Origin: an uncultured Chloroflexia bacterium
Lineage (GTDB): Bacteria > Chloroflexota > Limnocylindria > Limnocylindrales > CSP1-4
Assembly: GCA_963759135.1 (NCBI GenBank)
Contig: CAVWXU010000027.1
Location: 58,296-122,295 of the forward strand
Length of the DNA: 64,000 nt
Direction of reading: 5' to 3'
The position numbers were made by a program, and so were the translations under genes. Below the pieces are notes generated by a model, which saw only the letters and a list, made by a program, of their open reading frames with translations, ran no database searches and was not told the origin of the DNA. Positions 56,550-61,320 of this stretch are shown here, in pieces. Numbering within the stretch: position 1 is the stretch's first letter; each line of letters opens with the position of its first letter.

Positions 56550-59138
56550 TTACCTCGCCGGCCCTGGTGGCAGCTGGTGCGCCTCCCCGCCGCGCCCGTT
56601 TCCGCTGCCACGCGCGCTGTCGTTCCCCTCGCCGCGCCCGGGACCGATCCGGGCCGGCAGCACGGGCAGCAGCCGGTCGATCGACACGTCGCGACCGGCG
56701 GCAAGGGCGCGTGACATCCAGTCCCGTTCCCGCCGGACGTAGCTCATCTCTGTATCGTGCTGGACGGCCGAGTACGACAGCAGGTCGATGTGCGGCACGG
56801 CGCGGGTCTCGTGCGCGAGCTCGAAGTCCGGACCGCATCGCAGCGCGTCGTACGGGCAGGCGTCAACGCAGATCCCGCAGAGGATGCAGCGCAATTCGTC
56901 CACGTCGTACTGCTCGAGGACGCGTGGCTTGGGCATCAGTGCCCCCGTCGGGCACGTCTCGGCGCACCGTCCGCACGAGACGCACGGCGTGTCGTTGAGG
57001 CTCATGTCGAGCGGCGTCGTCACGAGGGTGTCCATGCCGATGCGCATGAAGTCGTAGCACGCGGCACCCACGACCTCGGCGCAGACGCGGGCGCAGCGGC
57101 CGCAGTCGATGCAGCGGGATGGCTCGCGCAGGATGAAGGCGTGGCTGTCGTCGCGGATGTAGTCGTGGTTGTACCCCGTGAACCGGTTTTCGAGCACGCT
57201 CCGATGGCTGAACCCGGTGCGGGACGGCTCGAGCGTCGCGAGGGTCGTGCCGTACTCGATGCCGAGCCGCCGCAGGTCGCAGTACCCGATGGCCTCGCAC
57301 GTGCACTGCAGGCAGCGCCGGGCCTCGTCCATCGCCTCGACCTGGGTGTACGGGATCTCGTACTCGACGTAGCTCCTGTTGCGGACGTCGGCCGGCATCG
57401 AGCGCAGGCGGTGACGCGGCTCCTTGAGCTCGCCGGTGAACGGTACGATCGAGAGGAAGGCCGGCTGCGGCTCGGCGATGGTCTGGCGCGTTCGGACGTC
57501 GTCCAGGTCCATGCCCTTCAGGTACGCGTCGATGGCGTACGCGGCGCGGCGGCCCTCCGCGATGGCCTGGACCACCGTGGTCGCGCCGACCCGGACGTCG
57601 CCGGTCCCGAAGACGCCGGCCCGGCCGGTGGAGAAGGTCACCGCGTCGGCGGCGAGCCGGTTCCGGTTCACCTTGACGCCGTCGGAGCCGTGGTCCAGCC
57701 ATGCCAGCTCCGGCCCCTGCCCGATGGCCAGCAGGACCCGGTCGCACTCGATCGTGAACTCCGTACCGGGGACCGGTTCCGGGCGGCGGCGCCCGGAGGC
57801 ATCGGGCGCGCCCATGCGCATCCGCTGGAACTCGACGCCGGTCACGGTGTTGCGGTCGCTGGTGATGACGCGCGTGGGCGCGGCCTGGAAGATGGCGTGG
57901 GCGCCCTCCTCGATCGCCTCGTGGACCTCGCTCGAGGCCGACATCTCCTTCATGTCGCGCCGGTACACGAGCGTCACCTCGCTGGCGCCCTGGCGGAGCG
58001 ACGTCCGCGTGCAGTCCATGGACGTGAAGCCGCCGCCGATCACGACGACCCGGCTGCCAGCGTGCCCGGGGAACGGCAGTCCGAGGGTGGCGGTCCGCAG
58101 GTACTCGAGGCCGTCGAACACGCCGTCGGCGTCCTCGCCCGGGACCCCCAGCTTGTTGGTGTCGTAGCAGCCGATGGCGACGCAGACCGCGTCGTAGCCC
58201 TGGTTCTGCAGGTCGTCGAGCGTGAAGTCCGTGCCGAGCGCGCGGCCGCACTCGAAGCGGCCTCCCAGGTCGAGAATCGACTGGTACTCGCCGTCCACGA
58301 CGCTGTCCTTGGGCAGGCGGTACTCGGGGATGCCGTACCGCAGCATGCCGCCGGGCTTCTCGTCGCGCTCGTAGATGGTCACGTCGTGGCCGTCGATCAG
58401 CAGGTAGTAGGCCGCGGACGCTCCGGCTGGGCCGCTCCCGATGACGGCTACCCGCTTGCCGCTCCTGGGCTGCAACTCGAAGGGGACGGGCGCCTTCCGT
58501 CCCTCGGCCTGCAGGCGGAGCACCTGGTCGCCGGCGTAGCGGTGGCTGTCGCGGATGGCGATCGCCTCGTCCACCTCGTCCCGCCGACAGTGCTCCTCGC
58601 ACGGTGCCGGACACACCCGCCCCAGGACGCTGGGGAACGGGATGGTGCGCTTGAAGATGCGCGCCGACTCGACGAAGTCACCCTCGGTGTTGGCCTTCAG
58701 GAACCCGGGGATGTCGATGTGGCTCGGGCACTTGTTCTGGCAGGGCGGCAGGCAGTAGGCGTTGTGGTCGCTGAAGATCAGCTCGAGGTTGGTGTGCCGG
58801 AGGGCCCGGACACGCTCCGTCTGCGTCCGCACCACCATGCCCGCCTCCGCGGCGCGGGCACAGCTGATCGGCGGGTGGTCCTCGCCCTCCACCTCGACCA
58901 CGCACATCCGGCAGGCGCCGAACCCGGGCAGTTTCGGCTCGTAGCAGAGCGTGGGGATCTCGATGCCGTTGTCCCGGCAGACCTCCAGGATCGTCTGCCC
59001 CGCGCGACCCGTGACCTGCCGCCCGTCGACCTCGATCGTGAAGGCGGGCGCGGAGTGGGGCCGCTGCGGCGACTGCGTCTCGAGGAGACGCTCGGCGAGC
59101 GTGGGCGCGGTTGCCTGGATCTCGATCAGGTCGGCCAT
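56550..59138 (-). CDS. 862-aa multidomain redox protein embedded in the nuo operon. Order: NuoG/HoxU-type N-terminus (2Fe-2S plus His-ligated 4Fe-4S); GltD/NfnB-type FAD-NAD(P)H oxidoreductase; 4Fe-4S ferredoxin motifs; C-terminal segment matching the second half of NuoI.
   Basis: N-terminus [51 protein letters not shown]...[16 protein letters not shown]. GltD N-terminal cluster [12 protein letters not shown]; dinucleotide sites [18 protein letters not shown] and [32 protein letters not shown]...GVFGTGD. Ferredoxin motifs [35 protein letters not shown]. The last is followed by the NuoI-typical RCGPDFELA. Confidence 0.65.
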   Translation of the reverse strand: [862 protein letters not shown]

Positions 59139-59151
59139 GCTGACATCCGGG

Positions 59152-60489: not shown

Positions 60490-61320
60490 CAGGCGCGCCC
60501 GGCCGGTGCGTGGCCGGCCAGCGATCGCGCGAGCCGCGCGGCGCCGGCGGCGGTCATGTCCCTCTGCGGTCTGCCGTCGAGCGTCACCCACGGCGTGCCG
60601 GCGTTCTCGCCGTGGCAGTCGTCGGTGGCCAGCGCGACTGACCCGTCCGGCGTCGTCCCCCCGAGCGGGACCCCGAGCTCGTCCTCGAACGCTGCGCGAA
60701 CGGCCCCGCCGCCGAAGAGCGAACAGGACGGGCAGCGGCAGATGCCCAACCGGTGCGCGGCGGGAAGCTCGCAGACGCAGCTGTCCGTAGAAGGACGCCG
60801 TGCCGTAGACCTCCGCGTACCAGATTCCGGTCGCGGTGGAGATGTGCTTGACCGCGGCCACGGGAATGTACCCGTAGATCTCCTGCGTCCCCTCGAGGAT
60901 GCGCAGCAGCCGCCGTGGGTCGTGTTCCTCCTGCTCGAGGAGGGCGTCCAGCCGGGTCGTGTCCGCCGGATCGAACGCCGCGAAGTTCGGGTCGGGCACC
61001 GGCCGGCCGGAGCGGCGCAGGGCCTGCTCCTCGCGGCGCTCCGCGTACTGCTCCGCCGCCCCCCAGTGAACATGGAACCGGTCCTTCGTGTCGGTGCCGC
61101 CCATGTCGATGCACTCGATGGGGCAGGCCATGGCGCACTGGAAGCACGTCTCGCACTTGAGTGCGCCGTACTCGTCGTACAGCAGCTGCAGGCGGCCCCG
61201 GTGTCTCGGCGGGATCTCCGGTACCTGTTCGGGGTACTGGACCGTCACCTTCGGTTCGAAGAACCGGCGGAGGGTCAGGGCCATGCCCTTCACGATGCCG
61301 ATGCCGGGGACGAAGCTCAT
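60489..61320 (-). CDS. Fusion ORF: NuoI N-terminal half (first 4Fe-4S motif only) joined in frame to a NuoE-like thioredoxin-fold 2Fe-2S protein. One internal frame change near 60745.
   Basis: NuoI-specific N-terminus MSFVPGIGIVKGMALTLRRFFEPKVTVQYPEQVPEIPPRHRGRLQLL...LKCETCFQCAMACPIECI. This is followed directly by the NuoE-like N-terminus (PDPNFAAFDPADTTRLDALLEQ...RRLLRILEGTQEIYGYIPVAAVKHISTATGIWYAEVYGTASFYG...PVGH). The NuoE C-terminus is in the adjacent frame (ICRCPSCSLFGGGAVRAAFEDELGVPLGGTTPDGSVALATDDCHGENAGTPWVTLDGR), ending at 60489. No second NuoI motif in any frame nearby. Confidence 0.55.

Follow-up and report, generated by a model that had tools for sequence, protein, structure and literature searches.

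The 64,000-nucleotide window analysed here (assembly GCA_963759135.1, contig CAVWXU010000027.1, from an uncultured Chloroflexia bacterium of the class Limnocylindria; G+C content ~72%) encodes a tightly packed nuo operon for complex I on its minus strand, from position 63883 down to 50698, with the genes in the order nuoD, nuoH, gene 1, gene 2, gene 3, nuoJ, nuoK, nuoL, nuoM and nuoN. By homology, genes 1 to 3 are a cassette derived from Stn/NfnABC (Bfu-family) enzymes that sits inside nuoI, so that the two halves of the iron-sulfur (Fe-S) subunit NuoI are carried by the gene 1 and gene 3 proteins. The stop of nuoH and the start of gene 1 share an ATGA, genes 1 and 2 overlap in a TGATG, and gaps of 13 nt and 9 nt separate gene 2 from gene 3 and gene 3 from nuoJ. 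These coordinates, the gene order and the coupling by overlaps and short gaps had been given in a first-pass annotation of the DNA, and all were re-read in the sequence and found correct. The scores of NuoD, H, K, L, M and N exceed the curated cut-offs of NCBIfam, and by their profiles the remaining operon genes are bona fide Nuo genes. Operons of relatives carry NuoA (PF00507), NuoB and NuoC, and in one of them (locus L001) nuoA-B-C-D stands 5' of the split; nuoA lies beyond the window. We thus read the backbone as the 11-subunit order A-B-C-D-H-I-J..N, with the cassette placed within nuoI and not at the nuoEFG site between nuoD and nuoH. Since the backbone is of the 11-subunit type, the module would represent an independently acquired NADH module (N-module).

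Domain checks against Pfam and NCBIfam reveal how NuoI is divided. On the 121 positions of the NuoI model TIGR01971, gene 1 residues 12-79 occupy positions 1-67 and gene 3 residues 739-779 occupy positions 71-111, with zero overlap. In M. smegmatis NuoI (8e9g chain I), residues 8-77 correspond to gene 1 and residues 84-128 to gene 3, and the break therefore sits in the hairpin that joins the two cluster motifs. The operon thus has no single NuoI chain with both 4Fe-4S motifs, and this complementary coverage bears out the earlier proposal that NuoI is split over two polypeptides, each half fused to one end of an inserted module. The halves jointly provide the eight Cys that two [4Fe-4S] clusters need, located on two chains. 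Counting Cys in 80 Limnocylindria species for gene 1, 69 for gene 2 and 52 for gene 3, we find the four Cys of the gene 1 half kept in 80/80 species and those of the gene 3 half in 51/52, and the conservation profile of gene 3 is nearly invariant over the NuoI segment.

The C-terminal cluster motif of the 862-aa gene 3 protein (motif C) had been suspected to derive from NuoI, and the alignments to soluble enzymes agree. Homology of gene 3 to NfnA (9bov_A) and StnC (8oh5_C) covers its motifs A and B and ends after CPTGA. The next motif in NfnA and StnC is an FdhF-type C-x2-C-x3-C; gene 3 is instead NuoI-like on both sides of the motif C Cys, with the preceding YDVDELRC as NuoI-specific as the region that follows (TIGR01971 71-111). 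A count of ligands leads to the same place. All Fe-S Cys of gene 3 through motif B are partnered as in StnC, with motifs A and B pairing with each other to form a HydA/NuoG-type 2x[4Fe-4S] domain, and the four Cys of motif C are unpartnered; with motifs A and B already paired, these four are left for the four of gene 1 (C56, C59, C62 and C66). In 2x[4Fe-4S] ferredoxins, every cluster takes Cys from both motifs. No other NuoI second motif was found in the operon, and gene 1 holds the first motif only. Motif C was also considered as the second half of a StnC-type ferredoxin domain, and this assignment was rejected on alignments to StnC and NfnA.

AlphaFold2 (AF2) monomer models fit this picture. 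In gene 1, residues 34-117 are predicted with a local confidence score (pLDDT) of 33-45 and the NuoE-like part with 82-95; in gene 3, pLDDT exceeds 90 across most of residues 30-739 and falls to 30-37 over residues 740-805, which are not folded onto the rest of the protein, and the tail is of low confidence except for a helix at 796-813. The models suggest that neither NuoI half folds by itself, consistent with co-folding in trans. They also bear on whether genes 1 to 3 might encode a separate, soluble Stn-like NAD(P)H oxidoreductase in which motif C is merely an internal ferredoxin motif, complex I being fed by another donor. Soluble Stn/Nfn enzymes are well known, and Pfam Fer4_7 does span motifs B and C of gene 3 (residues 719-765) as if they were one dicluster domain. 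Motif B, however, pairs with motif A in StnC, NfnA and HydA alike, both flanks of motif C are NuoI-specific, the second NuoI motif is found nowhere else in the operon, where gene 1 has only the first, AF2 leaves residues 740-805 off the rest of gene 3, and both fusions are kept in two phyla, as described below. In addition, StnABC could not be purified once its FdhF-like domain was deleted (PMC10482914), so that gene 3 plausibly needs another scaffold. We give the idea of a separate soluble enzyme very little credence.

The origin of the cassette is evident from all three proteins, whose best solved relatives are StnABC and NfnABC chains, as expected from the earlier assignment of the module to the Stn/NfnABC type. 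Profile searches also recovered the domains behind the boundaries first drawn from the letters: PF01257, Complex1_51K, NADH_4Fe-4S, Fer2_4, Fer4_20, Pyr_redox_2, Fer4_Nqo3 and the TIGR01971 halves. The NuoE-like part of gene 1 (PF01257, a NuoE-type thioredoxin-like 2Fe-2S domain, residues 126-265) is closest to StnA (8oh5_A; 75 bits) and NfnC (9bov_C) and stays below equivalog level for NuoE (60-64 bits vs a cut-off of ~142). Its Cys pattern (residues 194-235, window 60616-60741) reads C-x-C-x2-C...C, where the canonical form is C-x4-C...C-x3-C; the fourth canonical C1-type Cys is missing in 80/80 species and an additional Cys196 is invariant, which suggests that the 2Fe-2S cluster has been re-ligated or lost. 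Gene 2 consists of Complex1_51K (the Nuo51 FMN domain) and NADH_4Fe-4S (the NuoF Fe-S domain), scores ~400 bits to NfnB, StnB and HydB vs ~275 to respiratory NuoF, and reaches 361 bits vs the cut-off of 559 for the NuoF equivalog TIGR01959. The alignment to Bfu B subunits (584 aa) pairs its residues 13-435 with their residues 104-526 and leaves their N- and C-terminal Fe-S domains without a counterpart in gene 2. In the window, gene 2 keeps GLRGRGGAG, GEET, NNVET and the four Cys of cluster N3.

Gene 3 shows the Nfn-type BfuA design, a HydA/NuoG-like Fe-S N-terminus with an inserted FAD/NADP(H) domain: Fer2_4 at residues 33-107, Fer4_20 at 129-206, Pyr_redox_2 at 229-529 and Fer4_Nqo3 at 669-734. 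Over residues 35-761 its scores are 534 bits (NfnA) and 489 bits (StnC), whereas NuoG gives 102 bits against a cut-off of 470; none of genes 1 to 3 is thus a canonical NuoE, F or G at equivalog level. A Foldseek search with the AF2 model returns 9bov_A and 8oh5_C as best matches (query-normalised TM-scores 0.68-0.69). The YRR...EM motif and FAD contacts of the GltD-type module are kept relative to NfnA and StnC, and Cys 65/76/79/93 of the [2Fe-2S] domain and all 12 Cys of residues 600-735 are kept in 52/52 species. Similarity to 9bov_A and 8oh5_C ends near residue ~700 of their ~1175, and gene 3 stops 100 residues past its ferredoxin domain, lacking the FdhF-like C-terminal domain of Stn/NfnABC. 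The alignments thus describe gene 3 as a StnC cut exactly where the FdhF-like domain starts, followed by the NuoI C-half. As a separate observation on gene 3, His199 (window 58542-58544) stands in place of StnC Lys170, a ligand of cluster C7 reported to be strictly conserved among StnC homologues (PMC10482914); the same His occurs in P0130, a protein of the Thermoleophilia type described below, and by alignment is a derived change beside the FAD common to both lineages.

The split layout is widespread and conserved. A scan of one genome per species gave at least 599 pattern matches and at least 572 confirmed stretches. In 80 fetched loci from species-representative genomes of the class Limnocylindria, in which synteny was examined, the order nuoD-nuoH-g1-g2-g3-nuoJ...nuoN was recovered 80 times out of 80, as far as the flanks extend, answering the earlier suggestion that related genomes be searched for it. 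The gene 1 fusion protein has thousands of homologues, the best 120 of which as listed are all ~276-282 aa long and align end to end; the named ones among them come from metagenome-assembled genomes (MAGs) of Chloroflexi or Candidatus Limnocylindrales. No gene of the operon is better conserved than gene 3, whose identities of 73-95% compare with 45-91% for genes 1 and 2 and whose Fe-S Cys are retained in 51-52 of 52 species. Ratios of nonsynonymous to synonymous substitution rates (dN/dS) between the window and four relatives are 0.055-0.097 for nuoD, 0.074-0.098 for gene 3, 0.16-0.19 for gene 2, 0.035-0.078 for the NuoI N-half of gene 1 and 0.16-0.34 for its NuoE-like part, values that place all three genes under purifying selection.

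These data must be set against one defect in the window itself. The frame change in gene 1 that the first-pass annotation placed near 60745 lies at 60771, where a DNA alignment with five relatives reveals a single surplus C. Deleting it yields a protein of 276 aa, the length of ~120 listed homologues, which matches database protein P0001 end to end at 98% identity; with it, the frame reads without a stop into gene 2 (an open reading frame of 1182 aa), the frame 3' of the site being otherwise intact. On these comparisons we attribute the surplus C to faulty sequencing or to a very recent mutation, and not to a family trait. In a separate case, the assembly of a relative (loci L003/L005; contig_119659, MFD01872.bin.2.101), breaks divide glpX, gene 3 and the NuoF-like gene in the same operon. 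These broken genes look like indel errors, and in that respect they support assembly error as the source of the window's frameshift.

Could the whole arrangement then be an artefact, produced by mis-assembly or by a recent insertion that destroyed nuoI and left a non-functional operon? The frameshift at 60771 points that way, as do L003/L005, which, with their other broken genes, come from assemblies whose contig names hint at long reads. Yet the frameshift is one base in the window only, and the frame beyond it is 98% identical to P0001, while the architecture is found with intact frames in 80/80 fetched loci and at least 572 stretches from many independent studies and assemblers, and in a second phylum too. 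The conserved layout, low dN/dS in all parts and retention of every cluster Cys contradict mis-assembly, which had been named as a ground for abandoning the split-NuoI proposal, and we regard an artefact or pseudogene as extremely improbable.

When gene 3 served as query in an exhaustive profile-free search, a single additional protein type bearing a NuoI C-half came to light, P0130 (816 aa), which is 44% identical to gene 3 in a representative search and 41% in a multiple alignment. Its operons, seen in loci L084, L085 and L086 (1.8-Mb contig), read nuoA-B-C-D-H, NuoI-N::NuoE (253 aa), B subunit (636-638 aa), gene-3-like (816-824 aa) and nuoJ-N, and every named member of this sister lineage is a Thermoleophilia or Actinobacteria MAG. 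Here the NuoE-like domain carries the canonical C-x4-C...C-x3-C, and the B subunit, to which gene 2 is 45% identical in L084, keeps both an N-terminal thioredoxin-like domain (PF01257) and a C-terminal 2x[4Fe-4S] region (Fer4 dicluster), as in true Bfu enzymes. The Bfu core of clusters B1-B5 with a canonical C1 is accordingly present in the sister operon and incomplete in the window genes. In a neighbour-joining tree of gene 3 residues 30-735 (Kimura distances, 30 nearest soluble homologues, 100 bootstraps), the Limnocylindria-type and Thermoleophilia-type gene 3 proteins group as one clade in 100/100 bootstraps. Because the NuoI-fused gene 3 proteins are monophyletic, the insertion appears to have been a single event, and because the outgroup has the full form, the window lineage would later have lost the additional domains of the B subunit and altered the cluster site of the C subunit. 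Between the lineages, NuoD shows 45% identity, no more than to T. thermophilus Nqo4; either the whole operon or the cassette alone may have moved between phyla.

Table 1. Features of the split-NuoI operon in the window (coordinates are window positions unless a locus is named).
Feature	Coordinates	Strand	Evidence or remark
Gene 1, whole	60489..61320	-	NuoI N-half + NuoE-like domain
Gene 1 residues 1-110: NuoI N-half (TVQYPE...; first CxxCxxCxxxCP = C56/C59/C62/C66) + conserved linker	60991..61320	-	TIGR01971 1-67; 8e9g_I 8-77; AF2 pLDDT below 50 as monomer
Gene 1 residues 111-276: NuoE/BfuC-like thioredoxin-fold domain, non-canonical Cys pattern (C194-x-C196-x2-C199...C235)	60489..60990	-	PF01257 E = 1.7e-23
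One surplus C, shifts gene 1 frame	60771	-	DNA alignment with five relatives: one additional column
Gene 2, 445 aa, NuoF/BfuB-like FMN/NADH + [4Fe-4S] subunit	59152..60489	-	Pfam PF01512, PF10589
Gene 3, 862 aa, whole	56550..59138	-	NuoG-N + GltD, then NuoI C-half
Gene 3 residues 33-107: NuoG/HydA-type [2Fe-2S] domain	58818..59042	-	PF13510 Fer2_4
Gene 3 residues 129-542: GltD/NfnB-type module (two [4Fe-4S], FAD, NAD(P)H Rossmann fold, YRR motif)	57513..58754	-	PF14691, PF07992
Gene 3 residues 600-735: C-x2-C-x-C-x5-C cluster motif + HydA/NuoG-type 2x[4Fe-4S] ferredoxin domain	56934..57341	-	PF22117 Fer4_Nqo3; aligns to StnC/NfnA up to CPTGA
Gene 3 NuoI C-half	56799..56933	-	TIGR01971 71-111; 8e9g_I 84-128
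Gene 3 C-terminal tail, residues 781-862 + stop, weakly conserved	56550..56798	-	Conservation profile
nuoD, 404 aa, Q-module subunit 5' of split	62669..63883	-	NCBIfam NF004739 421 bits vs cut-off 360; best solved relative T. thermophilus Nqo4
nuoH, 451 aa	61317..62672	-	NCBIfam NF004741 334 bits vs cut-off 305; stop overlaps gene 1 start (ATGA)
nuoJ	55986..56540	-	NCBIfam NuoJ models best match, E = 2.5e-36, 125 bits, under curated cut-off 174
nuoK	55673..55984	-	NCBIfam NF004320 106 bits vs cut-off 57
nuoL	53708..55666	-	NF005141 718 bits vs cut-off 556
nuoM	52190..53701	-	TIGR01972 609 bits vs cut-off 264
nuoN	50698..52179	-	TIGR01770 419 bits vs cut-off 333
Sister-lineage cassette	L084:7330-12451; L085; L086:10001-15165		Split-NuoI operon

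We favour, with good confidence, a reading in which the operon encodes a functional but non-canonical complex I, with a Stn/Nfn-type cassette in nuoI, a NuoI assembled in trans, and the activity of a plain dual-port NAD(P)H:quinone oxidoreductase. Our confidence in the structural and evolutionary side of this reading is high; nucleotide specificity, direction of flow and assembly in trans we infer. We propose that an 11-subunit nuo operon acquired a Stn/NfnABC cassette inside nuoI, between its two cluster motifs, such that the 5' half of nuoI became fused in frame to the NuoE/BfuC-like gene and the 3' half to the end of the NuoG-N/GltD gene, there taking the place of the vestigial FdhF-like domain of the soluble enzymes. 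In Stn, that domain (StnC residues 683-1172) has no catalytic activity, electrons follow a main path of FAD-C7-C6-C5-C4-C3-B1-FMN, and C1 and C2 lie on a blind side branch (PMC10482914). As both motifs must contribute Cys to each cluster of a 2x[4Fe-4S] domain, the NuoI halves would co-fold in trans into the domain that holds N6a and N6b. The joined NuoI would both complete the wire of the Q-module and covalently staple the input module to it, replacing docking by the missing NuoG/FdhF-like domain. NADPH would be oxidised at the GltD-like FAD and, in the window's clade, NADH probably at the FMN of gene 2. Electrons from both would converge on the StnC-like Fe-S chain, leave by the cluster of the ferredoxin domain that has no onward partner in soluble Stn, and pass through N6a/N6b and N2 to menaquinone, with protons pumped by NuoH/J/K/L/M/N.

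Several observations weigh against parts of this proposal. The stitched N-half and C-half, although colinear with TIGR01971 1-111, score 98.2 bits, below the curated cut-off of 113.05. The alignment behind the AF2 model is shallow over the gene 3 C-half (~6 sequences), and this may partly cause the low pLDDT there. The NADPH preference of the GltD site is deduced only from its YRR motif and homology, and the proposed electron path is drawn by homology to Stn/Nfn structures. Finally, 51/69 Limnocylindria species have Thr or Ser in place of the second Cys of the [4Fe-4S] motif for N3/B1 in NuoF (E[SA]CGK[TS]IPCR; gene 2 residues 348-357, window 59419-59448, and the same site in L017-L082), although this Cys is kept in the window's clade, and the FMN-pocket NADE is changed to NG[F/Y/I]E in nearly all species, so the NADH port may be weakened across much of Limnocylindria.

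The changes in gene 2, together with the dN/dS contrast between genes 2 and 3, suggest that in the Limnocylindria clade it is the GltD/FAD port that cannot be dispensed with. This bears on a variant of the same assembly in which the GltD port serves mainly as an outlet, the enzyme being an NADH:quinone oxidoreductase that also makes NADPH, by transhydrogenation or by reverse flow to NADP+ driven by the proton-motive force (pmf). Complex I is reversible, the Stn/Nfn relatives physiologically interconvert NADH and NADPH, and the NADH/FMN motifs named above are largely kept in the window's clade, including all four N3 Cys. Against an outlet, selective constraint is much stronger on gene 3 than on gene 2 (dN/dS ~0.08 vs ~0.17) and the N3 Cys is lost in most species of the clade, both pointing to the FAD and not the FMN port as indispensable; sequence alone, moreover, is no basis for assigning a direction of flow. 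We consider the outlet variant unlikely.

The first-pass annotation also suggested that the input module may be capable of electron bifurcation. Bfu enzymes bifurcate at B1-FMN-C1 and pass low-potential electrons to ferredoxin via B3/B4, which the B subunit carries in its C-terminal domain, and Bfu relatives without B2-B5 are non-bifurcating (PMC11829005, PMC9304861). The suggestion is not supported for the window lineage, whose NuoF-like subunit lacks the domains for B3-B5 and whose NuoE-like 2Fe-2S motif is non-canonical. A bifurcating or confurcating complex I in the window's organism, coupling NADH and NADPH, or ferredoxin, at the input, would suit the bifurcating ancestry of the cassette, the full Bfu B subunit and canonical C subunit of the sister operon, and the confurcation that Schut et al. 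proposed for Nuo-Bfu (PMC9304861). It is hard to reconcile with the loss of B5 (N-terminal) and of B3/B4 (C-terminal), the ferredoxin exit, with the altered C1-type motif, and with the report that the GltD-type FAD of Stn is not the bifurcating flavin (PMC10482914). Since the ferredoxin-reducing domains of the B subunit are lost, the window enzyme is best read as the plain dual-port oxidoreductase proposed above. NAD(P)H can reduce quinone exergonically, without any need for bifurcation. On its gene content, the window enzyme would not bifurcate, and we think coupling of this kind in the organism decidedly improbable; for the Thermoleophilia-type operon bifurcation is plausible, and that operon may encode a membrane-bound hybrid of Nfn-Bfu and complex I that has retained the use of ferredoxin.

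A broader synthesis, which we put forward tentatively and as a minority possibility, is that a soluble Stn/Nfn-type enzyme was captured as an independent N-module by insertion of an operon into a gene. The Limnocylindria form would then be a proton-pumping NADPH(/NADH):menaquinone oxidoreductase with an essential FAD port, the sister form a pmf-coupled NADPH/NADH/ferredoxin/quinone enzyme, and the split NuoI the first natural two-chain 2x[4Fe-4S] staple.

Three other regions of the window deserve mention. A complete dnaA (DnaA_N, Bac_DnaA, Bac_DnaA_C) lies at 17167-18534 on the plus strand, so the window is probably near the chromosomal replication origin. A trehalose-phosphatase gene at 49661-50701 (+) is convergent to nuoN, and a relative has the same gene there (L001:20544-20834, 64% identical); because the gene is common to both, synteny reaches past the operon. 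Finally, an open frame of 2341 codons at 26907-33932 (+) has PMT-family glycosyltransferase domains at residues 1618-2076 only. Its N-terminal third is rich in R/D/Q/E, with AT skew swinging strongly over the same stretch, and looks like an out-of-frame reading of high-GC DNA or a merged gene.

The operon bears on long-standing questions about the origin of the NADH module of complex I and the donors of its widespread 11-subunit forms (e.g. PMC3144371). It looks like a second, independent acquisition of an N-module, in which the donor family and the junctions are still readable and 'untrimmed' and 'trimmed' stages are found in two phyla. Our reading predicts an NADPH-linked, proton-pumping quinone reductase and a ferredoxin domain built from two polypeptides. 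Limnocylindria and Thermoleophilia are abundant in soil and freshwater. Because database labels for these proteins are generic ('NAD(P)H-dependent oxidoreductase subunit E', 'FAD-dependent oxidoreductase'), metabolic reconstructions from their MAGs will probably list nuoI and nuoG as absent and treat complex I as incomplete.

In kind, then, the system would be a complex I with a non-canonical input module, and two of its traits appear to be undescribed: a NuoI split naturally, by an operon inserted into its gene, and a Nfn-type FAD/NADPH port on complex I. We found no description of a split NuoI or of a GltD-bearing N-module in the literature searched, in which subscription journals are thinly covered; neither is described by Degli Esposti 2015, Moparthi 2011, Spero 2015 or Schut 2022. 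The earlier impression that nothing of the sort had been described for complex I appears to hold in these two respects and falls in a third, as a Bfu module on complex I was predicted in 2022: Nuo-Bfu, a 14-subunit (A-N) complex I with BfuABC for NuoEFG, reported in Geobacter, Deferribacteres, Planctomycetes and Nitrospirae (Schut et al. 2022, PMC9304861). Within the literature searched, the term Nuo-Bfu is used in no other paper.

Like Nuo-Bfu, which is also biochemically uncharacterised (PMC9304861), the system described here would pair complex I with a Bfu-type input module encoded in the middle of a nuo cluster. It differs in having an Nfn-type A subunit with an FAD/NADPH domain, in its split NuoI, in occurring in other phyla, and in being inserted within nuoI, not at the nuoEFG site; NuoI and GltD are unmentioned in PMC9304861, and the window B subunit would fall outside Bfu as that paper defines it, with clusters B2-B5 required. 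The closest solved relatives, StnABC and NfnABC (PDB 8oh5, 9bov, 9n5u; PMC10482914, PMC11829005), are homologous in all three subunits and share with the cassette the gene order C-like, B-like, A-like and the layout of 2Fe-2S domain, GltD insert and ferredoxin domain. They are, however, soluble tetramers held by an FdhF-like domain of ~490 aa, where gene 3 has 45 NuoI residues instead. Unlike theirs, our C-like subunit bears the NuoI N-half, the B-like subunit is without the ferredoxin-reducing N- and C-terminal domains, the C7 ligand Lys170 is replaced by His199, and the genes lie within a nuo operon.

With canonical NuoE/F/G and NuoI/TYKY, the system has in common homologous folds, the FMN loop, N3, an N1b-type 2Fe-2S cluster, the N6a/N6b motifs and the same membrane and Q subunits; unlike the canonical N-module, its module sits inside nuoI rather than in the nuoD/nuoH gap, lacks the NuoG C-terminal domain and contains an extra FAD/NAD(P)H domain. 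Operons of 11 subunits without NuoEFG occur in Chloroflexi and Actinobacteria (PMC3144371). With such 11-subunit complex I-like enzymes, including cyanobacterial NDH-1 with ferredoxin and archaeal Fpo with FpoF, our operon shares the backbone order and the principle of swapping the input. The alternative donors known to date dock as separate proteins on an intact NuoI, NdhI or FpoI, whereas here the donor partner is encoded in the operon itself and is covalently tied to NuoI.

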